A DNA stretch of 61,470 nt. It comes from Candidatus Aenigmatarchaeota archaeon (GTDB taxonomy: Archaea > Aenigmatarchaeota > Aenigmatarchaeia > CG10238-14 > SCSR01). The notes below the pieces were generated by a model, which saw only the letters and a list, made by a program, of their open reading frames with translations, did not search any database and was not told the origin of the DNA. Location of the stretch: NCBI GenBank assembly GCA_018304615.1, contig JAGVVV010000003.1:1-61470 (forward strand), in the 5' to 3' direction. Made by a program: the position numbers and the translations under genes. Below, in pieces: positions 14,808-28,612 of the stretch; the first letter of the stretch is position 1; the number at the start of each line of letters is the position of its first letter.

Positions 14808-16028
14808 ATGACTGTTATGGAAGAACAGTACAAAAGCCCAATTTCGAAACTTGGCCACCTAGCTGGGTCTGGAGTTAGAGACCTTTCCAAAGAACTCATG
14901 TCTCCTTTAAGTCCAATAGATGAGCAATTTAGATACACTACCGAGACTAAACAGGTTCAACGCAAGCCTGATTATTCAAGAAGACGGTTTGTTATCGGAG
15001 GTTTGGTTCTTGCAGGATTGGTTGCTGAAGAATATTTCATAGGTATTGGAAGAAAATCACTTTTTTCCTCTACCCCTACTCCTACCCCAACTAATTCTAG
15101 TACTTATTCGATGAGTTCTGGTTCTACTTCCGAGATAATTTCTCAAACTAAGACTACTCAAACTGCCACAACTAGAAGCTTGCCTGCACTTGAACTCGGG
15201 GAATATGATTTGGGCGGTTATTCTTTCCATGACTATAATGGAATGGGAAGTTTGGAAGAGAATGAACCCATTGTTGATGATATTGAAGTGGTTGCTAAAA
15301 GCGCCAACAATACATTCACAACTAAGCCTGATAATGGAGGTTTTATTTTCAGAGATTTACCAATAGCTCCTTATACTGTTACTGAAGTTCATCCTGAAAA
15401 TAAGTTTAGGTACATGTGGAGGTCTGGAGAAGAGGTTGTTAATACTAAAACTGGCTTTAAAATTGATTTTCGTGGTAAATTGAGGTTGGATATAGCAATG
15501 GGAGAAGGACTTTTAACATCACCTTATGATGTTAGAAATACATTTGTTAGTGAGAAAATTTATATGGACGAAGATCCTGCAAAAAATACCTACAAAGATT
15601 GGAGAGGTGATCCTGATCCATGTGGGGGATGTGCTGATGGTCACGAAGGTACTGATTTCTTTTTTCCAGTAGGTACTCCAGTTTATGCAGCTGCACCTGG
15701 TAAGGTTAAATATATCGATAATTGGGGTCCAGTAGGTCTTTTTCTTATTATCCAGCATGAAGATTCTTTGTCCACTCTTTCCGCTCATATGAGTGAGGTT
15801 GATGTAAGTAAAAATCAATCAATTTATAGGAGACAATATTTAGGCAAATCTGGGCAGGACAAAACAAAACGAGGAGCGATACAGTTGCATTTTGAACTTG
15901 ATCAGGGTTTTCATGGTAGTTTAACTAGGGATTCTTGGTATAGACCATTAGATCCTTATAAGTCATTATGGTTACCAAATGCACTAGGATACTGGACAGA
16001 GGAGAATAAACTTCATTTTCCAAATTAA
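14808..16028 (+). CDS. membrane-anchored M23 family metallopeptidase with an SdrD-B-like domain
   Basis: SRRRFVI + TM; GGYSFHDYNGMGSLEENEP (SdrD-B-like); HEGTDF, GTPVYAAAPGKV, AHMS, QLHFE. Confidence 0.85.
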   Translation: MTVMEEQYKSPISKLGHLAGSGVRDLSKELMSPLSPIDEQFRYTTETKQVQRKPDYSRRRFVIGGLVLAGLVAEEYFIGIGRKSLFSSTPTPTPTNSSTYSMSSGSTSEIISQTKTTQTATTRSLPALELGEYDLGGYSFHDYNGMGSLEENEPIVDDIEVVAKSANNTFTTKPDNGGFIFRDLPIAPYTVTEVHPENKFRYMWRSGEEVVNTKTGFKIDFRGKLRLDIAMGEGLLTSPYDVRNTFVSEKIYMDEDPAKNTYKDWRGDPDPCGGCADGHEGTDFFFPVGTPVYAAAPGKVKYIDNWGPVGLFLIIQHEDSLSTLSAHMSEVDVSKNQSIYRRQYLGKSGQDKTKRGAIQLHFELDQGFHGSLTRDSWYRPLDPYKSLWLPNALGYWTEENKLHFPN

Positions 16029-16315
16029 TTTGAAAACCAAATTTCTTTAATAGTAATTAAAGAACCAATCAAAATAAATATAAATGCAATAATCCCCAAT
16101 GGTAAGCCAATTATCTGACCTAAATTTGGAACATTTAACATATTACTTATATCTACGAAAGGTATATTATCATGTATTAAATAGAACAATCCACCTGTTA
16201 CAATCCATTTTAAACCTTTGTATTCTTTATCTTTTAAAAAAGAATACCTAAGTAAAGCTACCGCAAGAAAAACTATAACTGTAATATCCATTGTTGGCGT
16301 ATTGAATAATGACAT
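16025..16315 (-). CDS. small three-helix membrane protein
   Basis: 96 aa, three hydrophobic segments; follows the SDR gene in the AT-rich block. Confidence 0.6.
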   Translation of the reverse strand: MSLFNTPTMDITVIVFLAVALLRYSFLKDKEYKGLKWIVTGGLFYLIHDNIPFVDISNMLNVPNLGQIIGLPLGIIAFIFILIGSLITIKEIWFSN

Positions 16316-16355
16316 TTCTTACTTTTTAATTAGTATTTGTTAATTATAAAGATTT

Positions 16356-17108
16356 CTATGAATATCTTGTAAAAACACTATGGCCACCATCAATAATTAA
16401 AGTTTGCCCCGTTATAAAATCAGAATCTGATGATGCTAGAAAAACAACTAATTTTGCAACATCTTCAGGTTTTCCAACTCTTTTTAATGGTATAAGATTT
16501 TCAGCCCATTTTTGATATATTTTTTTGGGATAGTTAGCTTCTATTATTCCTGGAGCGATACAATTCACGTTTATATTATATTGTGCCATTTCCATAGCCA
16601 GATTCCTTGTAAAAGCAATTAATCCTGCTTTTGCTGCAGCATGAGCAGTATGTCCAATCGTTCCAGTAATTGCAACAATCGATGATATGTTTATTATCTT
16701 TCCATAATGTTGTTTTTTCATTGTAGGAATAACACTTTTTGAAAACAGAAATGATCCCTTTAAGTCTACATCAAATTGCATATCCCATCCTTCTTCGGTT
16801 ATAGTCTCTACCGGGCCCTTTACCCCTGAGCCAGCATTGTTTACGAGTATATCTATTTTTTTAAACTCATTAATTGTAGCTTCAACAACTTTCTTTATAT
16901 CTTCAAGTTTTCTAACATCACATCTCATTAATTTTACAGATTTATTGTATTTCGATTTTATTTGTTGTGATAGCAAATCAGCATTTATTTTATCAGTTAA
17001 AAAAGTAGAAACAACATCAGCCCCTTCTTTTACTAGTTCTTCGACAGCAGCTCTTCCTATGTGACCAGAGCCACCAGTTACTATTGCTACTTTGCCTAAT
17101 AATTTCAT
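16356..17108 (-). CDS. short-chain dehydrogenase/reductase (FabG-like) with His replacing the catalytic Tyr
   Basis: TGGSGHIG, LVNNAG, ISS, AHAAAKAG, INVNCIAPG, GQTLIIDGG. Confidence 0.92.
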   Translation of the reverse strand: MKLLGKVAIVTGGSGHIGRAAVEELVKEGADVVSTFLTDKINADLLSQQIKSKYNKSVKLMRCDVRKLEDIKKVVEATINEFKKIDILVNNAGSGVKGPVETITEEGWDMQFDVDLKGSFLFSKSVIPTMKKQHYGKIINISSIVAITGTIGHTAHAAAKAGLIAFTRNLAMEMAQYNINVNCIAPGIIEANYPKKIYQKWAENLIPLKRVGKPEDVAKLVVFLASSDSDFITGQTLIIDGGHSVFTRYS

Positions 17109-17177
17109 GTACTTCTATATTAATTTAATTCAAATAGTTTATATTTTCATATATCTACTAGTGATTTTATTAACATT

Positions 17178-17906
17178 TTGGGAAAAACATCAATTGTAAC
17201 TGGTGGAACAGGTAACCTCGGTAGTATTATAGTAAAAAAATTTCTAGAAGAAGGATCAGATGTAGTTTTTACTTATCTTAAAAATCAGAAGACAGTTGAA
17301 GTTCTTCAGCATCAAGCTAAGATTCTTAAAAGAAAAATACTTCCAATTAAATGTGACATTAGAAATCAAAATCATATTATAAAAGTTGTCGAGACAGCAA
17401 TCAAGAGTTTTAAAAAAATAGACATTCTTATCAATAATGCTGCCATTGAATACAGAGTTCCTACTTTAGAAACGACTAATGAAATGTTGAATGAAATTAT
17501 TGACGTCAATTTAAAAGGTCCATTTTACTTTAGTAAATTTGTCATTCCACATATGATTAAACAAAAATATGGTAAGATAGTGAATATAGCTTCCCTCGCA
17601 GGTTTAATTGGCGCTGATTCTTCTGCTGCTTATCACGCAACCAAAGCTGGTTTGATGGGCCTGACAAAAAAATTAGCTTTTGAATTTGGACCTTACAACA
17701 TCAATATCAATTCGATTGCTCCAGGTGTTATTCTTAGAAATACATTAGACAAAGAGTATATTGATTATATTGTAGCTTGGACTCCGTTAAGAAAAATGGT
17801 TAAACCAACTGACATTGCAAATGTTGCTTTATTCTTAGCTTCTCCTGAGTCAGATATGATAACTGGGCAGACTATCATTGTAGATGGTGGAACAGTAATG
17901 CTGTAA
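17178..17906 (+). CDS. short-chain dehydrogenase/reductase (FabG-like)
   Basis: TGGTGNLG, LINNAA, AYHATKAG (YxxxK), ININSIAPG; TTG start, exact start uncertain. Confidence 0.92.
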   Translation: MGKTSIVTGGTGNLGSIIVKKFLEEGSDVVFTYLKNQKTVEVLQHQAKILKRKILPIKCDIRNQNHIIKVVETAIKSFKKIDILINNAAIEYRVPTLETTNEMLNEIIDVNLKGPFYFSKFVIPHMIKQKYGKIVNIASLAGLIGADSSAAYHATKAGLMGLTKKLAFEFGPYNININSIAPGVILRNTLDKEYIDYIVAWTPLRKMVKPTDIANVALFLASPESDMITGQTIIVDGGTVML

Positions 17907-17907
17907 T

Positions 17908-19383
17908 TTACTTTACAAAACACATAGAGTTACAAATTCCACGTAAGTGATAAATACATTTTTTACATATTTCTGGAATTTTCATGTTACTGTGTACTGA
18001 ATTGAAATAATCAAATATTTGTTCTCTATTGTTTACTTGTTTTAACTCAGGCCCGAACTTATTTTTGAGCGGTTCGCAGAATTTTATTATCCCATTTTCC
18101 ACTGTGAACATTTCCCTGCATTCAAAACAGTTTTTCGGCTGTTTATCCATCTCCATTTTCAGACATGGAGGAAGAGGCCTACTTAAAACAAACTTGATTT
18201 TCTCATTCCTCAATTTTTCTAGGAAATTCTGAATTTTAATTCTTGTTTTCTGATTCCAAAGATCTTTTTCTTTTAATTCAAAAGATAATAAAAATTCCCT
18301 GTCACCGACTCCATAATGTCCGTGAAGTTTCTTTTTCTCCATCAACTCATTTAAAATAAAATCAAAATCATCATACGTTCTTATTCTAACAAATTTTCTC
18401 CCTATTGCTTCTTCATGGAAATTCTTATCAAAAGGAATGTTTCTTAACATATCAAAAATATCATCGAATTTCATAGGAACGAAATTTTGAATTTCCCAAT
18501 AATTTTCTCTTGAAAATAAAAAGTTTCCCGAGTATGTGTTCTTGAATTTCTCTATCATGTTGGAAAGATTTCCCTCAGCGATATTTCCCATGAACTCAGA
18601 TTTGAAAGTAAATGAAGTAGCGTAAACGTTTCCATTTGGAAAAGTAGTTGGAAAGAATCTAGCTCCAAACTTCACTTTAGTCGAGTTGGTGAGGTAGTAT
18701 CTATAATCATTGGGAGTTTTATATTTCTTAGCATAATAACTGATTTTTTTAAAAATGTAATCTTCAACCTGATTAAAATTCTGCCGGGGAGTAGTATCTA
18801 GGTTTTCAGCCCTTCCAACAACTCCCCATGTGTGAACTTCTATAGGTGTCTCATGCTTTACTATGATTTCAGCTATTTTGTCTATAAGTGGAAAACTTAA
18901 CATGTCAAGGCTGAGTCTCAGAATAATTTCTATATCCATTTCTTTACATACTTCAGCTACATTGTTTATTTTTGTAAGTGGGACTCTAGGCAAATGAAAT
19001 CTGTCGACACTAACTATCATTGTATCGAAATCGGCATTTTTTATTACATTCAAGTTTCTTCTTGTGTTTCCGATACTTCCAGCAAACACAGCAGAACTAA
19101 TTATGTTAAGGTCAAATGGCTTATAATATTCCAACAAAATATCGATGCATCTCTTCAATTTATCTAAATTGTAAAATGGTTCTCCCCCGCAAATTCTTAT
19201 TGCAATATCATTTTTTGAATATTCTTCTGCAACTCTTCTGATAGTTTCTTCAGGCATCCATTTCTGCGGTTCAAGAGATGGAAGACACGAATAAACACAA
19301 AAATCACAATTAACAGGACATGCCATCGTTATTAGCAAATCCCCGTCTACAGGCTTGTGCCTGACATCTTTTTTAATGACCAT
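17908..19383 (-). CDS. radical SAM protein with a Cys-rich C-terminal extension
   Basis: ITMACPVNCDFC, ICGGEP; C-terminal RPLPPCL, CFEC, FCEP, CKKC...ICNSMC. Confidence 0.88.
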   Translation of the reverse strand: MVIKKDVRHKPVDGDLLITMACPVNCDFCVYSCLPSLEPQKWMPEETIRRVAEEYSKNDIAIRICGGEPFYNLDKLKRCIDILLEYYKPFDLNIISSAVFAGSIGNTRRNLNVIKNADFDTMIVSVDRFHLPRVPLTKINNVAEVCKEMDIEIILRLSLDMLSFPLIDKIAEIIVKHETPIEVHTWGVVGRAENLDTTPRQNFNQVEDYIFKKISYYAKKYKTPNDYRYYLTNSTKVKFGARFFPTTFPNGNVYATSFTFKSEFMGNIAEGNLSNMIEKFKNTYSGNFLFSRENYWEIQNFVPMKFDDIFDMLRNIPFDKNFHEEAIGRKFVRIRTYDDFDFILNELMEKKKLHGHYGVGDREFLLSFELKEKDLWNQKTRIKIQNFLEKLRNEKIKFVLSRPLPPCLKMEMDKQPKNCFECREMFTVENGIIKFCEPLKNKFGPELKQVNNREQIFDYFNSVHSNMKIPEICKKCIYHLRGICNSMCFVK

Positions 19384-19424
19384 TTTATCAATATAATATA
19401 CAATTGTATATTATATTGATAAAT

Positions 19425-20009
19425 TCAATAAAATATTGATGTTTTTGCATCGAGTATAACCCAAAATCCAGTATAAACAATGGGATTATTTTCTTGTGTT
19501 TTTTTAATACAATCAAGATAATAATCAGAAGGTTCAGGAACATCAGATAGGTGAAATTTTTTGCATCCAAAGTAAAAAACATAATAATCATCCATATTAT
19601 CTTGTATTCCAGAATTTCCGTAAAAGATGCAATTTGGACCATTTCTAATTGCATCATCTATTAATTTGGCTGATTGTTCATTACAATTTTTAATATAGCC
19701 AAGGTAAACATAAGAATTATTTTTATCTTGATAATAGATTTCTGAATACAGCTTTCCGAACTCGCAAGTTATTTCATAATTTGAGCCGATTTTTTTAATA
19801 TGAGCTGCGTTGACTAAAGATTCATTTGCAGGGTTATCGCATTTCCAACTATTATCCCAATTCGATAAAAACCAAAAATCAACATTTCTTAATTCCGAAA
19901 AATTGTCAGAAAATGAAACATGAACAGGTTTATGAGAATATAAAATTATAAAAGCTAATACTATTCCTATAACAATAACAATACCAAATATTTTTTTTTC
20001 ACTTATCAT
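19425..20009 (-). CDS. membrane-anchored exported hypothetical protein
   Basis: N-terminal TM then a six-Cys soluble domain; co-oriented directly downstream of the precursor gene. Confidence 0.65.
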   Translation of the reverse strand: MISEKKIFGIVIVIGIVLAFIILYSHKPVHVSFSDNFSELRNVDFWFLSNWDNSWKCDNPANESLVNAAHIKKIGSNYEITCEFGKLYSEIYYQDKNNSYVYLGYIKNCNEQSAKLIDDAIRNGPNCIFYGNSGIQDNMDDYYVFYFGCKKFHLSDVPEPSDYYLDCIKKTQENNPIVYTGFWVILDAKTSIFY

Positions 20010-20057
20010 TAATTATAATTATTTTGACGATTTAGATATTTTTGTTTATACTGTTAT

Positions 20058-21365
20058 TTAACAACCACCGGTAGTGGCAGTAGTACTGATAGTAGTACTG
20101 ACAGTAGTACTAGTAGTATCACAACTTATATTATGTACCAATACTCCATCAGCAAAGAACGAATGCGTCCTGGTAATATTCTTAATTGTGTATGTCTGTA
20201 TCACTCCATATTCAAAGTCTATCTTGACAACCGTCTTAAACTTCAAATCACTCGTCATTACCATATCTCCGATTTGTAATTGAAGTACTCTTGATTTCTG
20301 CAATAACAATGAATTCTGTCCTCCCTTTGACTGAACTTCACTTCTCATATAAGCCTCTTCGCTTCCAGTAGGATCGACAGCCTTCCATCCACCAGCCGTG
20401 TAAATGGGATGATCCCTACTTATTCTCAGTTTACTGTTATCGTCGAAAGTAATCTTACAAATATAATCATGAACTACACTTTCTAATCCAAGAACTTTTC
20501 CTATTGCAAGTTGATTAGTATTTTCATCATAACCCATCACCCTCTCACCAATCTGCACATCCTCAATATTCTTCAGACTCCCATTCCCCATGAGTACCTT
20601 CGTCCCTCCCGGAAGACATGTATAAGCTGAGGTCGCCGGTCCTGTAGTAAATATATTATGTACCAATACTCCATCAACAAAGAACGAACACGTCCCTTGG
20701 AGGGTGTATGTCTGTATCACTCCATATTCAAAGTCTATCTTGACAACCGTCTTAAACTTCAAATCACTCGTCATCACTCTATCTCCTGTCTGTAGTTGCA
20801 GTACTCTAGATTTCTGTAAGAGTAAGGAGTTTTGTCTACCTTTCGATTGAACTGTTTCGTCACCGAAATAAGTTTCTTCACTTTTGCTCGGGTCAATAGC
20901 CTTCCATCCACCGGCCGTATAAATCGGATGGTCATTTGTTATTCTCAATTCAGTGTTGTCATCAAAAGTAATCTTACAGACATAATCACGTAATGGCCTC
21001 TTCAACCCAAGAACCTCCTTTATGGTCATGTTGTGGGTATTTTCATCATAACCCATCACCCTCTCACCAATCTGCACATCCTCAATATTCTTCAGACTCC
21101 CATCCCCCATGAGTACCTTCGTCCCTCCCGGAAGACAGCAGCTTCCAGTAGTTCCAGTAGTGCTCACAGAACTAGAATGTGACCCTTGGATATTAGGTTT
21201 TGCATAATTGATATTTGTGGAGGAAGTGTGTGTGGCTGCAGTAGCGGCAGTAACTCCAGCAAGTGCAGTTCCTATGGCGACTAGAGCCTTCTTTGATATT
21301 TTTCCTTCCTCACCAGTAAGGAAATCGGATATGTTTTTCTTAATCTTAGGAAGATTCAAAGTCAT
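20058..21365 (-). CDS. His-Xaa-Ser-type peptide precursor containing two tandem Hint (BIL-like) domains
   Basis: Leader DFLTGEEGKISKKALV, HTS (aa46-48) and HSS (aa63-65); Hint1 aa77-237, spacer aa238-249, Hint2 aa250-412, tail aa413-435. Confidence 0.85.
   Translation of the reverse strand: MTLNLPKIKKNISDFLTGEEGKISKKALVAIGTALAGVTAATAATHTSSTNINYAKPNIQGSHSSSVSTTGTTGSCCLPGGTKVLMGDGSLKNIEDVQIGERVMGYDENTHNMTIKEVLGLKRPLRDYVCKITFDDNTELRITNDHPIYTAGGWKAIDPSKSEETYFGDETVQSKGRQNSLLLQKSRVLQLQTGDRVMTSDLKFKTVVKIDFEYGVIQTYTLQGTCSFFVDGVLVHNIFTTGPATSAYTCLPGGTKVLMGNGSLKNIEDVQIGERVMGYDENTNQLAIGKVLGLESVVHDYICKITFDDNSKLRISRDHPIYTAGGWKAVDPTGSEEAYMRSEVQSKGGQNSLLLQKSRVLQLQIGDMVMTSDLKFKTVVKIDFEYGVIQTYTIKNITRTHSFFADGVLVHNISCDTTSTTVSTTISTTATTGGC
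20079..20114. repeat. 12-bp tandem repeat, three copies, encoding STT(V/I/A)
   Basis: AGTAGTACT(G/A) units at 20079, 20091 and 20103. Confidence 0.8.
20130..20618 (-). other. Hint domain 2 (163 aa, no endonuclease)
   Basis: Starts CLPGGTKV, block B SRDHP, ends HSFFADGVLVHN; +1 residue Ile. Confidence 0.92.
20655..21137 (-). other. Hint domain 1 (161 aa, no endonuclease)
   Basis: Starts CLPGGTKV, block B TNDHP, ends SFFVDGVLVHN; +1 residue Ile. Confidence 0.92.
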
Positions 21366-21392
21366 ATTCCCTTATTAATATTTGCAAAAAGC

Positions 21393-22142
21393 CTAACTTA
21401 AATGTTCCCCATCTCTCATCTTTTGGTATACATCCAAATTAGTTACCATCTCAGCTTTTATTTCCATGCTTTTGACTAGCTTGAACCCCAACGAAAGCAT
21501 AAGTGCCTGAAGTATCTGAGACGACCAGACATACATCTTGAATTTTACCATCCCCTTTCCTTTAAAAGAAACCCTGATTAATTCAATTGAATTATCTAAA
21601 TGGGAATAATTTCCATTAATGTTAAGGAAATTATCTGATGTGGAGATAGAATACTGATCCCTCAAGACAGATTTGAGAGAATCATTATAACTAATCAACA
21701 CATTTCCTTTTTTCCTCAAGTTCTTGTTCAAATTCCTCATTATTTTGACGAACGAGATTAATGAGATATTAGCCAAGGTATTACCAAACATTGTGAAAGA
21801 ATCAAACATTTTATCCAATTTCACAGTTCCAGCATCTGCATTTTTGAACTCTGATTTGAATTTTAACTTTTTCTTCTCCCCAAGTGCAATTTTTATCATC
21901 TTTTTATTGTTGTCTATCCCTACGATCGAATACCCCTTTGATTCAAGCCATAAAGACAAAAGACCTCCGCCACAACCTATGTCTAAAATTCTACCTTTTA
22001 TCATGCGTTTATTTCCACTCAAGAAAGGTTCAATTTCCTTGTAATTGGCTTCCATCTCAGCAATCCTTTTCTTCCCCCACCGGGAGGAATAAGTATATTT
22101 TTCATAACCTTCAACATCTTTCCAGAAATCAATCACAACCAT
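21393..22142 (-). CDS. class I SAM-dependent methyltransferase
   Basis: ILDIGCGGG, VGIDNN, FKNADA, FDSFTMFGNT. Confidence 0.88.
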   Translation of the reverse strand: MVVIDFWKDVEGYEKYTYSSRWGKKRIAEMEANYKEIEPFLSGNKRMIKGRILDIGCGGGLLSLWLESKGYSIVGIDNNKKMIKIALGEKKKLKFKSEFKNADAGTVKLDKMFDSFTMFGNTLANISLISFVKIMRNLNKNLRKKGNVLISYNDSLKSVLRDQYSISTSDNFLNINGNYSHLDNSIELIRVSFKGKGMVKFKMYVWSSQILQALMLSLGFKLVKSMEIKAEMVTNLDVYQKMRDGEHLS

Positions 22143-22177: not shown

Positions 22178-23638
22178 CTAAATCGAAGAATTCTTCACCC
22201 AGTTCATCATGATTTTGGCGTCTTCAGGATTGAAAATCAGCTTCCTGAACATGTGCTCTATCTGCAAGTCATGTACCTGCAATATGTAGTCTTGCTTCGT
22301 CTTAGTGATTAGATTCTTCTGCTGGCCGTACGAACTGACATGGCATGGGGAAGAATACGGGTGCCAAGGAGAAGTATCGTCCTGAACAGTAGTAGTCAGC
22401 CCTATAAAGTTAATCGCATCCTTTGAAGTGAAAACTTCCCTGTAAGTGTTCTCTTTCACATTTCCCAGTTTGAAAACATCTGAATTCTTCCCTTCGTCAC
22501 ATGTGAAGACATCACCCCACTGGTTGTATCCGGCTTGTGTAATGCAAGCACCGCAAGGGGCTCCAAGACAAGTGTAAGAAGAAGGCTGCAATGTCACGAT
22601 CCTCCTCAGCAAAATGATTATGTCATCCCCCACCATGTTAACTCCTTTCCTGTTTAGTTCCAAAAGATATTCCAGATAATTCTTCCATCCCTCTACAAAC
22701 TCCTCGGCAGTATATCCTATCTTATCCCAAGTCTGTTCAGCCCTACCTGCTATGAAAATAGGCCTGAAACTGATGTGATTCAATCCGTGTTTGATATACT
22801 CATCAACGAGTTCTCTCACATAAGGAAGAGTATACCTTGTGACTGTTGGCATGGCAGTCGAGAAGAAAGGATATTTCAACTCTTTCAATTTATCTATCCA
22901 ATAAACAACCTTTTCATGAGAACTTCCTTTGACCCAAGGCCTGTTCTTGTCGTGAATTTTCTTCGGCCCGTCAAGCGAAGTGCAGATATGGACTTTATTC
23001 ATCATCAAATATTCAAGTTTCTCTTCGTCCATCAAAGTCAAATTTGAAACCAACTGGAAAGTGATTTTCTTAATGCCGTTCCACCATCCGCTTTCATCAG
23101 CCTCCTTACTTTTGTTTATTTTCTTCGCTCGTTCAATCATGAATTCAATCATTGGAAAATTAAGTAAAGGCTCTCCTCCTGTGAATTCAATTGTCAGATA
23201 CGGGGACGGAGATTGGAAGATGAAATCTATAGTAGCCTTTGCAGTCTTCTTATCCATGTCAACCCCTTTCTTGTTTTCATGGACTGCATAAGGATAGCAG
23301 TACAAACAACCTTGGTTACATCTCAAAGTTGGAGTGATAATGTGAAGATTAGTTCCAGTGAAGATCCTGTTGAATCTCATCCTATACATGTTGGTAAGTT
23401 TGTCATGGTTCCTCTCAGTGATTATTACCCCTTTCTCTTCCAAAACAGAAAACAAATTAAGATCTTCTTCTAACTTGTCCATTTTGAAAAGTCTGAATTC
23501 TTTTCCATCAAGTACAACCCAACTTCCATGTTCTGTAGTAATCAGATGATGATTCTCATCAAACTTTTTCACCCAATGCTTGTTGATCTCATGCAATGGA
23601 GCAGAAGTCTCAGAATTTACTGAAAGTGAGAGTGCCAT
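22178..23638 (-). CDS. hxsB: His-Xaa-Ser system radical SAM maturase HxsB-like
   Basis: LHIITPTLRCNQGCLYCY, TIEFTGGEPLLNF, ICTSLDGPKKIHDKNR, TCLGAPCGACITQAGYNQWGDVFTCDEG. Confidence 0.82.
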   Translation of the reverse strand: MALSLSVNSETSAPLHEINKHWVKKFDENHHLITTEHGSWVVLDGKEFRLFKMDKLEEDLNLFSVLEEKGVIITERNHDKLTNMYRMRFNRIFTGTNLHIITPTLRCNQGCLYCYPYAVHENKKGVDMDKKTAKATIDFIFQSPSPYLTIEFTGGEPLLNFPMIEFMIERAKKINKSKEADESGWWNGIKKITFQLVSNLTLMDEEKLEYLMMNKVHICTSLDGPKKIHDKNRPWVKGSSHEKVVYWIDKLKELKYPFFSTAMPTVTRYTLPYVRELVDEYIKHGLNHISFRPIFIAGRAEQTWDKIGYTAEEFVEGWKNYLEYLLELNRKGVNMVGDDIIILLRRIVTLQPSSYTCLGAPCGACITQAGYNQWGDVFTCDEGKNSDVFKLGNVKENTYREVFTSKDAINFIGLTTTVQDDTSPWHPYSSPCHVSSYGQQKNLITKTKQDYILQVHDLQIEHMFRKLIFNPEDAKIMMNWVKNSSI

Positions 23639-23899
23639 TCACTGACCTCTTTCCTTCACAGCATTTAGCAAATGATTGTAAAACTCATATCCCAGCAATT
23701 CCATCTCCTCCGGTTTTAGATTCTTTTTCGGCTGCATTTCAACGAATATCCTAGACTTTTCATCTGCCGCAACTACATGGCAAACCTGCTCGAATTCTTC
23801 TTTCACCTTTTTCACAGACTCGAAATCATAGAATTTTGGATTTATGAACAACTGGACTCTATTTCCGTTTACCTTTATTTTTTCTGCTAACTTTGGCAC
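23639..23899 (-). CDS. HxsD-like small protein
   Basis: FINPKFYD...GYEFYNHLL, paralogous pattern to the adjacent 139-aa protein. Confidence 0.65.
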   Translation of the reverse strand: MPKLAEKIKVNGNRVQLFINPKFYDFESVKKVKEEFEQVCHVVAADEKSRIFVEMQPKKNLKPEEMELLGYEFYNHLLNAVKERGQ

Positions 23900-24278
23900 T
23901 CTTTACTTTCCCCCTTTTAACTGGAGCACTCTTTACTTCAGATTCTTGTGATTGAGTCTCAAACGCTTTCTGGATTATCATTCCCCTAAGAACAGCATTT
24001 TTCTCCACCTGAGTATTGTAAACAGAATAACTGACTAACTCATTGTTGAACTGCCTCCCCAATTCTTCCAGGTTTATTTTAGCGTCTTTCCTCCTCAACT
24101 GGACTATTATTTCCTCATTGGGGTCTCCGTCAATCAGCACCCACGCCTTGTCTACAAGAATATATGCGGCAGAAAAAATCGTGTTCATCGGGTAAATCTT
24201 GGGATTCACAGAAATGACGACATTTCCAGTCTTCTCATCGACTTCCAGATTATCTACAGACAAAATTCCTTCTGCCAT
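23859..24278 (-). CDS. hxsD: His-Xaa-Ser system protein HxsD-like
   Basis: VNPKIYPMNTIFSAAYILVDKAWVLIDGD...LGRQFNNELV pattern; first gene of the cluster. Confidence 0.72.
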   Translation of the reverse strand: MAEGILSVDNLEVDEKTGNVVISVNPKIYPMNTIFSAAYILVDKAWVLIDGDPNEEIIVQLRRKDAKINLEELGRQFNNELVSYSVYNTQVEKNAVLRGMIIQKAFETQSQESEVKSAPVKRGKVKSAKVSRKNKGKRK

Positions 24279-24319: not shown

Positions 24320-25351
24320 ATGGTCGATTTAATACTTATTGCTATTATTGTCTTCGGATTTATTAATTCCTATACCGATTTGAAATATTCCAAAATAAAA
24401 AACGTTTTAATAATTCTAATGATTCTTTCATCAGCAGTCCTTAACTTCTATCTGAATTCATTCACATACGAAACGATAATCAACTCTTCAATATCCCTTG
24501 CTCTAGGATTCTTTCTTTTTTATCTGAACTACTGGTCTGCCGGAGACGCCAAACTATTTTTCGCATTCTCCCTTCTTGTTCCAATCTCAGTCTACCACTT
24601 TGGCAAAGTAAGCTACTTCCCATCCATCAGCATCTTGATCAACGCCTTCGTCCCAGTTACAATTTACTATTTGCTCAAATCGGTTACAACCCTGAAAATA
24701 AAAAACCTTGTCAATATCCTAAAAGATCAATTGAAACCAAAAACACTACTCGCAACAGTTCTATTCCTTTTCGGTTTTCCTTTCATATTCAATTTTTTCA
24801 ATCTGAAACTCGATGTAATCTCCTCAGTGTTCATCTTGCTCCTTCTTTTCCAGGTTCTTAAGAAATTTCCCAAAAAATATTCCCTTGTCTTCTTCGTTTC
24901 ACTTTCCATCCTCAATCTACTCTTCTATCCGGATAAAATTCTAGTTCCTCCTTTCTTTTACAATTTCATCCTTTCAGTAATTATCTATCAGATATTCAAC
25001 TTAGCCCTAAGTTTCCTATTTACCCTATCTTTTTCAAACCAGTTCTTAATTGACAAATTGAAACCTGGGATGATCCTAGGCGAGCCATTATTCGAACTTG
25101 GAAATAAATTCAGCAAAAAATCAAAAAAAGGAGAAAAGATAACGAAACTCTCGCAAGAAGACATCTCGTTGCTTAACAAATTGTACAAATCTGGGAAACT
25201 GGATTTTAAAACTCTCCTGATTGAGAGAACAGTTCCATTCGCACCTTTCATTTTCATAGGAGTTCTTCTCACATACTTAGTCCAAGGAAACCTGTTTTCT
25301 TACGTCTACCTCATCTATCTGAAACCTTATTTTGCGACTTTACTAAGTTGA
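24320..25351 (+). CDS. class III signal (prepilin) peptidase, A24/FlaK-PibD-like
   Basis: YTDLK first Asp, WSAGDAKL GxGD-type motif, C-terminal VPFAPFIFIG. Confidence 0.85.
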   Translation: MVDLILIAIIVFGFINSYTDLKYSKIKNVLIILMILSSAVLNFYLNSFTYETIINSSISLALGFFLFYLNYWSAGDAKLFFAFSLLVPISVYHFGKVSYFPSISILINAFVPVTIYYLLKSVTTLKIKNLVNILKDQLKPKTLLATVLFLFGFPFIFNFFNLKLDVISSVFILLLLFQVLKKFPKKYSLVFFVSLSILNLLFYPDKILVPPFFYNFILSVIIYQIFNLALSFLFTLSFSNQFLIDKLKPGMILGEPLFELGNKFSKKSKKGEKITKLSQEDISLLNKLYKSGKLDFKTLLIERTVPFAPFIFIGVLLTYLVQGNLFSYVYLIYLKPYFATLLS

Positions 25352-28500: not shown

Positions 28501-28586
28501 GGGCTCATAGTCTAGTGGTAGGACGTGGCGCTTTCAAATACGGCGCATACAACGCCAGAACAGGAGTTCGATTCTCCTTGAGCCCA
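28501..28586 (+). tRNA. tRNA-Val(UAC) with a 15-nt intron at position 34/35 (28534-28548)
   Basis: Acceptor GGGCTCA/TGAGCCC, discriminator A, T-loop TTCGATT; BHB with central helix GCGC 28528-31/28543-46 and bulges TTT and ATA; spliced loop CT-TAC-AA. Confidence 0.88.
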
Positions 28587-28612
28587 CTTTACCACGCGAT
28601 TCAGTTCCAAAT

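Follow-up and report, generated by a model that had tools for sequence, protein, structure and literature searches.

In the HXS antiphage system (HxsD-HxsB-HxsC-HxsA), the effector HxsA is matured and N-terminally processed by HxsB, HxsC and HxsD; the Escherichia coli system blocks phage DNA entry, with HxsA matured by radical S-adenosylmethionine (SAM) enzymes, and 99.7% of the HXS systems described belong to Pseudomonadota (Li et al., Nat Commun 2026, PMC13128918). For type-A bacterial intein-like (BIL) domains, the defining features have been set out together with a proposed splicing route, in which Asn cyclisation frees an alpha-amine that attacks the N-terminal thioester (PMC4031507); among BIL products, those of cleavage dominate (PMC7664689). 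At the BUBL loci of ciliates, a ubiquitin-like domain situated between BILs is passed as a thioester to a lysine amine (PMC8616854). Here we describe a 61,470-nucleotide stretch (hereafter the window) from a Candidatus Aenigmatarchaeota archaeon (NCBI GenBank assembly GCA_018304615.1, contig JAGVVV010000003.1, positions 1 to 61,470 of the forward strand; the source genome is 0.79 Mb in 22 contigs), in which one gene encodes a putative peptide precursor of the His-Xaa-Ser (Hxs) type that bears two consecutive Hint domains separated by a short spacer, IFTTGPATSAYT.

The explanation we favour for the spacer, and hold to be reasonably probable, is that it is a young, unconserved linker without a function of its own, lying between the duplicated type-A BIL-like Hint domains that an HxsA3-like precursor carries in its hypervariable tail. 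The noteworthy part of the locus is the fusion of an Hxs precursor with BIL domains, not the spacer. Below, P0001 denotes the precursor protein of the window, P0002, P0003, P0086 and other P numbers denote homologues, and L016, L017 and L019 denote homologous loci.

Architecture of the Precursor

The precursor gene is an open reading frame (ORF) of 1308 nt on the minus strand (20058..21365) that encodes 435 aa. The same 1308-nt gene and its cluster are present, with 0-1 nt differences, in three independent ENA metagenome assemblies (ERZ27254845, ERZ4903137, and ERZ4903072); the tandem structure is therefore not an assembly artefact, and this explanation was ruled out. The NCBI product for the contig (P0082; 20058-20774) is only 238 aa long and starts at the internal Met198, so the leader, the Hxs core, and the greater part of the first Hint domain are absent from the deposited annotation.

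Profile matches mark the edges of the Hint region, with TIGR01445 (intein_Nterm) starting at residue 77 and Pfam Intein_splicing ending at residue 412 (profile position 155 of 155). Hint1 extends from Cys77 to Asn237 (161 aa; 20655..21137, minus strand) and is identified by Pfam and NCBIfam profiles, predicted fold, and Foldseek; Hint2 extends from Cys250 to Asn412 (163 aa; 20130..20618, minus strand) and is identified by Pfam and NCBIfam profiles and predicted fold. Each ends in VHN (residues 235-237 and 410-412) followed by Ile. The spacer between them, a middle extein or linker delimited by translation of the ORF, composition, and the structural model, comprises aa 238-249 (12 aa, 36 nt; 20619..20654, minus strand). 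The translation and the coordinates bear out the earlier note on this DNA in placing it exactly between Asn237 of Hint1 and Cys250 of Hint2, and its monoisotopic masses, given there as about 1210.59 Da (cyclic) and 1228.60 Da (linear), were recomputed as 1210.587 and 1228.598 Da. Hint2 is followed by a 23-aa Thr/Ser-rich tail, ISCDTTSTTVSTTISTTATTGGC (20061..20129, minus strand), which is its C-extein and resembles the Thr/Cys-rich tails of Hint-less family members.

Based on the position of its gene, at the precursor's place in the cluster, and on the leader and core motif that it shares with about 100 short proteins, the 435-aa protein is predicted to be the precursor of a diverged archaeal Hxs radical-SAM system. 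A phmmer search with residues 1-76 against 1.84 billion representative proteins retrieved 101 clusters, nearly all of 50-170 aa, that share a leader (LPKIKK..FL.GEEG.ISKK plus a hydrophobic helix), a core (H-x-S..Y..P..H-S-S), and then hypervariable Thr/Ser/Cys-rich tails, which are missing in some family members (P0089 is 69 aa). In the window protein, the HxsA3-like leader (LPKIKKNISDFLTGEEGKISKK and the hydrophobic helix; 21234..21365, minus strand) is recognised by profile match, by the phmmer clusters, and by the AlphaFold2 model, in which residues 25-40 are helical. The core (aa 45-76; 21138..21233, minus strand) contains two His-Xaa-Ser motifs, HTS (aa 46-48) and HSS (aa 63-65), and a Ser/Thr/Gly linker whose last residue is Cys76; the motif is kept in about 100 clusters. 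The sole match to a precursor family is with NF038309 (HxsA3) over residues 5-39 (E 1.3e-6; 28 bits against a cut-off of 65 bits). Short archaeal homologues also score low against this profile (21-34 bits), and the archaeal precursors look like a diverged sister branch of HxsA3.

Hint Domains

Both Hints retain Cys1 (Cys77 and Cys250), the block B His (in TNDH and SRDH, respectively), and the terminal His-Asn (residues 236-237 and 411-412), and in an alignment of 46 sequences Cys77, His146, His236, and Asn237 are nearly invariant. The +1 residues, Ile238 and Ile413, are non-nucleophilic; no leader-bearing Hint fusion carries Cys, Ser, or Thr there, the residues observed being Ala, Tyr, Lys, and Asp. 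Two Hint-family matches were obtained with Pfam, and AlphaFold2 predicts two confident, complete Hint folds in sequence, with the predicted local distance difference test (pLDDT) mostly >90. In a Foldseek search of the PDB, the top matches are to BIL2 of Tetrahymena BUBL1 (6TMM/6Y75; E 1.6e-11, template modelling score by target 0.86-0.89), with 2LWY also matched; BILs rank ahead of true inteins and Hedgehog (1AT0 is 28th). A sequence search of the PDB gave only weak matches to PI-SceI over the N-terminal 34 residues. On these grounds both Hints are assigned as type-A BIL-like domains. A canonical class 1 intein was considered and rejected: there is no Cys, Ser, or Thr at +1 (the residue is Ile), the insertion lies in a low-complexity, hypervariable tail, and the modules, of 161-163 aa, lack a homing endonuclease domain.

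Duplication and Insertion of Hint Domains

Hint1 and Hint2 share 78% identity at the protein level and 81% at the DNA level, with a synonymous divergence (dS) of 0.70 and a ratio of nonsynonymous to synonymous divergence (dN/dS) of 0.18; because of this low ratio, both copies are maintained by purifying selection. Identity between the two copies (window 20130-21137) is a mosaic, at 93-100% over the first 90 nt and nt 360-420 and 57-70% in other blocks, which suggests patchy gene conversion.

In a maximum-likelihood tree of 20 Hint modules, Hint1 and Hint2 of the window are sisters (support 100/98), joined next by the single Hint of P0002 and then by Hint1 of P0003, whose Hint2 falls in a different clade. 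On the basis of this tree, one ancestral Hint was duplicated in the window lineage only, and P0003 acquired its second Hint independently. P0002, the closest homologue (280 aa), has the same leader and core with one Hint; minus that Hint it is 114 aa.

The L019 cluster is closely related to that of the window (HxsD 93%, HxsB 88%, and the second radical SAM enzyme 65% identical), and its precursor, P0086 (115 aa), is Hint-less. Minus both Hints, the window protein is 111 aa and aligns end to end with P0086, including a Thr-rich tail that ends in Gly-Cys. Such an alignment is the classical signature expected of intein-like insertion into a host protein, and on that reading the spacer is what remains of the low-complexity tail between the two points of insertion.

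Among 5.8 billion proteins, the leader occurs in proteins of 239-761 aa only in P0001, P0002, and P0003. None of 60 related genomes has a precursor–Hint fusion, the matches being leader-only precursors (G049) or Hints inside ORFs of 594-2100 aa, and none of the 46 stretches matched in a pattern scan of genome contigs encodes a relative. Other leader-bearing fusions are P0011, P0013, P0097, and P0171, each with a single Hint, and these Hints come from different clades; P0011 and P0013 bear true HGSHSSHGSHGSHSS repeats, versus the two HxS motifs of the window protein. In P0171 (328 aa), the Hint follows the leader and precedes the HxS region (THTSGS...HHHHASHNSY), with Asp at +1; Asn cyclisation there would amount to autocatalytic removal of the leader. 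Precursors of the Hxs radical-SAM system have acquired BIL-type Hints on several independent occasions.

Related Hints were also found on other proteins. P0007 and P0008 combine a type IV pilin-like N-terminus (FTFVELLVV; PF07963) with a C-terminal Hint that groups in one clade with the window Hints, such that self-cleaving Hints appear to occur on pilin-like secreted proteins. A widespread family of about 755 aa (P0004, P0005, P0016, P0017, and P0026) has two or three consecutive C-terminal Hints, 2-7 residues apart and ending in VHNK; no Pfam family matches its N-terminal domain (about 300-450 aa).

The Spacer

The spacer resembles the flanking low-complexity segments in composition: Ser, Thr, Gly, Pro, and Ala together make up a fraction of 0.75 in the spacer, 0.79 in the linker before Hint1, and 0.74 in the tail, versus 0.27-0.28 in the Hint interiors. 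Residues 240-247 are modelled as disordered (pLDDT <50). Across the 5.8 billion proteins, the spacer is present only in the P0001 lineage, and the only other leader-bearing tandem-Hint protein, P0003, has an unrelated Gly/Thr spacer of 23 aa (YTGGGGTTGGATTGSTTSATTEV).

The earlier note had asked for spacer length and sequence to be compared across homologues. In the retrieved tandem-Hint proteins, with domain boundaries defined by hidden Markov models, spacers between consecutive Hints are 1-28 aa long and have no common motif (K, KG, RG, RPMV, RPFY, RPMVA, KICRL, KGGGG, KGESD, RPMIGS, FKYAGGA, and stretches of 10, 14, 23, and 28 aa); their lengths thus appear essentially random, with no conserved turn residues, and many would be too short for macrocycles. 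Overall, the spacer has the character of an ordinary young linker without a selection signal, the variants compared being near-identical (0-1 nt).

Proposed Processing of the Precursor and Alternative Explanations

In the sequence of events that we propose, cytoplasmic radical SAM enzymes would act first on the HTS/HSS core, and each Hint would then autoprocess. An N-S acyl shift at Cys77 would turn the carbonyl of Cys76 into a thioester, from which the leader-HxS core peptide could be released or transferred; the corresponding shift at Cys250 would activate Thr249, and cyclisation of Asn237 and Asn412 would cut the downstream junctions. The spacer could then be freed as a linear 12-mer by-product (both junctions cleaved and the thioester hydrolysed), be joined to the core (Ile238 attacking the Cys76 thioester in the active site of Hint1 itself), be joined to the tail (Ile413 attacking the Thr249 thioester in the site of Hint2), or undergo both ligations to give a 111-aa product equivalent to the Hint-less precursors; a cyclic 12-mer would require that the amine made in the site of Hint1 enter that of Hint2. 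Ligation back into the Thr-rich tail would be a minority splice-type reaction, in which the alpha-amine freed at a Hint attacks that Hint's own thioester. Release of the spacer as a linear by-product or its ligation into the tail is plausible, and head-to-tail cyclisation would be a minor side reaction at most.

Some points weigh against the favoured explanation. Hint1 has Cys in place of the block F His of Hint2 and relatives (TCSFF versus THSFF), which may weaken cyclisation of Asn237, and the autoprocessing of both Hints is predicted from conserved residues only. Purifying selection shows that the Hints are kept and says nothing of their function. Local alignment of the spacer DNA with the pre-Hint linker, the tail, and the P0002 linkers is no better than with shuffled sequence and so gives no trace of its origin, and strain variants differ by 0-1 nt only and hence are uninformative on spacer constraint.

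If both Hints mainly spliced, the spacer would stay in a 111-aa mature precursor (leader, core ending in GSC, IFTTGPATSAYT, then ISCDTT...GGC). The concatenated exteins match P0086 (115 aa) in length, composition, and Cys-containing C-terminus, P0002 minus its Hint is of similar size (114 aa), both +1 positions hold Ile, and type-A BILs are capable of splicing (PMC4031507); we nevertheless think it unlikely, given that cleavage products dominate in BILs (PMC7664689, PMC4031507) and that the tails are hypervariable and lost in some family members. Moreover, only 3-4 residues follow the Hint in several leader-bearing fusions (KGM in P0011 and P0013, KTAY in P0097, KIA in P0003), so that ligation cannot be the general purpose of these Hints. 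A different possibility is that the Hints have no catalytic activity and serve as structural or binding modules, with the spacer as a permanent, uncut inter-domain linker. The Cys at the block F His position of Hint1 and the Ser in place of the block B Thr of Hint2 fit this, as does the fact that purifying selection alone is no proof of catalysis, but Cys1, the block B His, and the terminal His-Asn hardly vary within the family, the two window copies included; such conservation is difficult to account for without autoprocessing, and we consider silent Hints distinctly improbable. There is still less to recommend the spacer as a second core peptide, released linear and tailored by the YydG-like radical SAM enzyme or the methyltransferase encoded nearby. 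That radical SAM enzyme is conserved downstream of Hint-bearing precursors, and Ile is the first residue of both spacer and tail; however, the same enzyme also stands beside the Hint-less P0086 and is therefore tied to the leader and core rather than to the Hints or spacer, and the spacer has neither a His-Xaa-Ser motif nor conservation. We set this candidate aside as very unlikely.

The earlier note proposed that the spacer could be excised or cyclised head to tail, as a natural counterpart of intein-based peptide cyclisation. The geometry for excision is upheld, in that the residues for the Cys77/Cys250 N-S shift and for Asn cyclisation are kept in both Hints and excision of a 12-mer is chemically plausible; a precedent is the Tetrahymena BUBL locus, where segments with BILs on either side come free with their C-terminus activated. 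It is, however, highly doubtful that the tandem arrangement serves to make a cyclic 12-mer, with Asn237 freeing the Ile238 amine, the Cys250 shift giving a Thr249 thioester, and intramolecular aminolysis closing the ring. In its favour, the four catalytic positions are all retained, purifying selection acts on both Hints, and a flexible 12-mer with Gly-Pro, disordered in the model, can loop back; in addition, type-A BILs have been proposed to ligate by a free alpha-amine on a thioester without a side-chain nucleophile (PMC4031507), and BUBL BIL2 hands its thioester to an amine (PMC8616854). Against this, the spacer is unique to one lineage and arose with a recent duplication, the sole comparable protein (P0003) has an unrelated spacer of 23 aa, and tandem Hints elsewhere are often 1-2 aa apart, which allows no meaningful macrocycle. 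The +1 position offers no Cys, Ser, or Thr and leaves the attack to a beta-branched Ile; each end of the spacer belongs to a different, complete Hint fold in the AlphaFold2 model, whereas split-intein cyclisation needs one reconstituted active site; and in the site of Hint2 the spacer amine would compete with water and with the pre-positioned +1 amine of Ile413. A cyclic product is chemically conceivable but unsupported, and the parallel with intein-based cyclisation founders on the comparison across homologues that the note itself suggested, the lineage-only spacer, the missing +1 nucleophile, and the two separate folds. The proposal that the tandem BIL pair is a natural macrocyclase giving cyclo(IFTTGPATSAYT) (1210.59 Da), perhaps by a domain swap that pairs Hint1's C-terminal half with Hint2's N-terminal half, appears equally far-fetched.

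The Hxs Gene Cluster

The precursor gene lies in a co-oriented cluster, all on the minus strand, in the order HxsD-like protein, small HxsD-related protein, HxsB-like protein, methyltransferase, precursor, 194-aa protein, and YydG-like radical SAM enzyme. The HxsD-like protein (23859..24278) matches TIGR03976 (E 8.7e-11; 42 bits against a cut-off of 50 bits), the second small HxsD-related protein (23639..23899) matches NF038315 (E 6.6e-9), and the HxsB-like radical SAM/SPASM maturase (22178..23638) matches TIGR03978 (E 1e-101; 341 bits against a cut-off of 370 bits). A SAM-dependent methyltransferase, identified by profile matches, is encoded between hxsB and the precursor (21393..22142). Downstream of the precursor are the 194-aa protein (19425..20009), which has no matches in Pfam, NCBIfam, or PADLOC and is missing from the P0002 and P0003 loci, and a second radical SAM enzyme (17908..19383) with a YydG-like core (TIGR04078, E 6e-18) and a Cys-rich C-terminus. 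Orthologues of this enzyme (59-65% identity) are encoded downstream of precursors P0002, P0003, and P0086. No recognisable HxsC is encoded in the cluster, the second radical SAM enzyme matching TIGR03977 at only E 1.9e-4, and the Hxs models of PADLOC were unmatched, the only PADLOC matches being generic homing-endonuclease and viperin-like radical SAM ones.

The accessory genes differ between the window and the cluster with the Hint-less precursor: L019 (5388-8820) has a 636-aa radical SAM enzyme and proteins of 295 aa and 220 aa, and its counterpart in the window (19425-22142) has the methyltransferase and the 194-aa protein, the precursors differing by the Hint insertions. An A24 (prepilin/FlaK-type GxGD) peptidase with an archaeal C-terminal domain is encoded divergently from the adjoining hxsD (24320-25351, plus strand), and also at L016 (3015-4046), L017 (1-46), and L019 (1148-2182), the cluster of the Hint-less relative; it is a candidate leader peptidase dedicated to the leader with FLxGEEGxISKK and a hydrophobic helix.

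Homologous loci carry TBP and RNase P p30, consistent with an archaeal host, as are the archaeal C-terminal domain of the A24 peptidase and the 0.79-Mb genome. The GC content is 0.30-0.31 in window 16001-20000, versus about 0.40 elsewhere, a region that spans a pair of short-chain dehydrogenase/reductase genes, the second radical SAM gene, and the gene for the 194-aa protein. At 28501-28587 (plus strand), ARAGORN called a tRNA of undetermined identity with a four-base anticodon (tcaa), probably an intron-containing archaeal tRNA.

Significance

A literature search found no paper linking Hint domains with precursors of radical-SAM or ribosomally synthesised and post-translationally modified peptide (RiPP) type. 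If the Hints are active, a modified peptide could be released without a protease or transferred by way of a thioester, which would be a new processing route for this so far unstudied branch of archaea and might serve as a tool in peptide engineering; the closely related cluster with a Hint-less precursor (P0086) provides a natural control. A remote possibility is that, as in BUBL, the Cys76 thioester from Hint1 serves to attach the radical-SAM-modified HxS peptide to a cell-envelope amine, in place of the peptidoglycan anchor of bacterial HxsA.

Comparison with Known Systems

Like the HXS system, the window has HxsB-like and HxsD-like genes adjoining a leader-bearing precursor with His-Xaa-Ser motifs. 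It differs in that all of its matches fall under the curated cut-offs, the precursor has only two HxS motifs and no peptidoglycan-binding domain, the cluster lacks a recognisable HxsC, and the host is archaeal; the description of HXS (PMC13128918) says nothing of Hint domains in a precursor, and neither ‘intein’ nor ‘Hint’ occurs in it. The likeness to the Hedgehog autoprocessing domain is that of a Hint situated C-terminal to its cargo, which is released through a Cys1 thioester and can be passed on to a nucleophile, but the window Hints have a terminal His-Asn and no sterol-recognition region, and match Hedgehog by fold only.

In split-intein cyclisation (SICLOPPS, split-intein circular ligation of peptides and proteins), an engineered system, two halves of one intein form a single active site, and the peptide starts with Cys, Ser, or Thr. 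The window likewise has a short peptide between an upstream intein C-terminus (Asn) and a downstream intein N-terminus (Cys); in contrast, its flanks are two complete Hints, separately folded in the model, and its peptide starts with Ile238. The BUBL proteins, in which BILs alternate with ubiquitin-like domains, are the closest natural analogue of the proposed spacer geometry, already known, and also the best structural match: they share the BIL-segment-BIL order, in which the segment gets a free N-terminus and a thioester-activated C-terminus. The BUBL segment is a folded ubiquitin-like domain, whereas that of the window is a disordered, unconserved 12-aa stretch of low complexity, without Lys or an evident target.

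Type-A BIL domains were reportedly described by Amitai et al. in 2003 and Dassa et al. in 2004, and 2LWY is the structure of a BIL from Clostridium thermocellum. The window Hints have in common with them the Hint fold, Cys1, the block B His, and a C-terminal His-Asn without a +1 nucleophile, and alike would be expected to undergo N- and C-terminal cleavage with minor amine-mediated splicing. Whereas BIL hosts are large secreted bacterial proteins, the host in the window is an archaeal radical-SAM peptide precursor, and it carries two tandem copies of the domain 12 aa apart.

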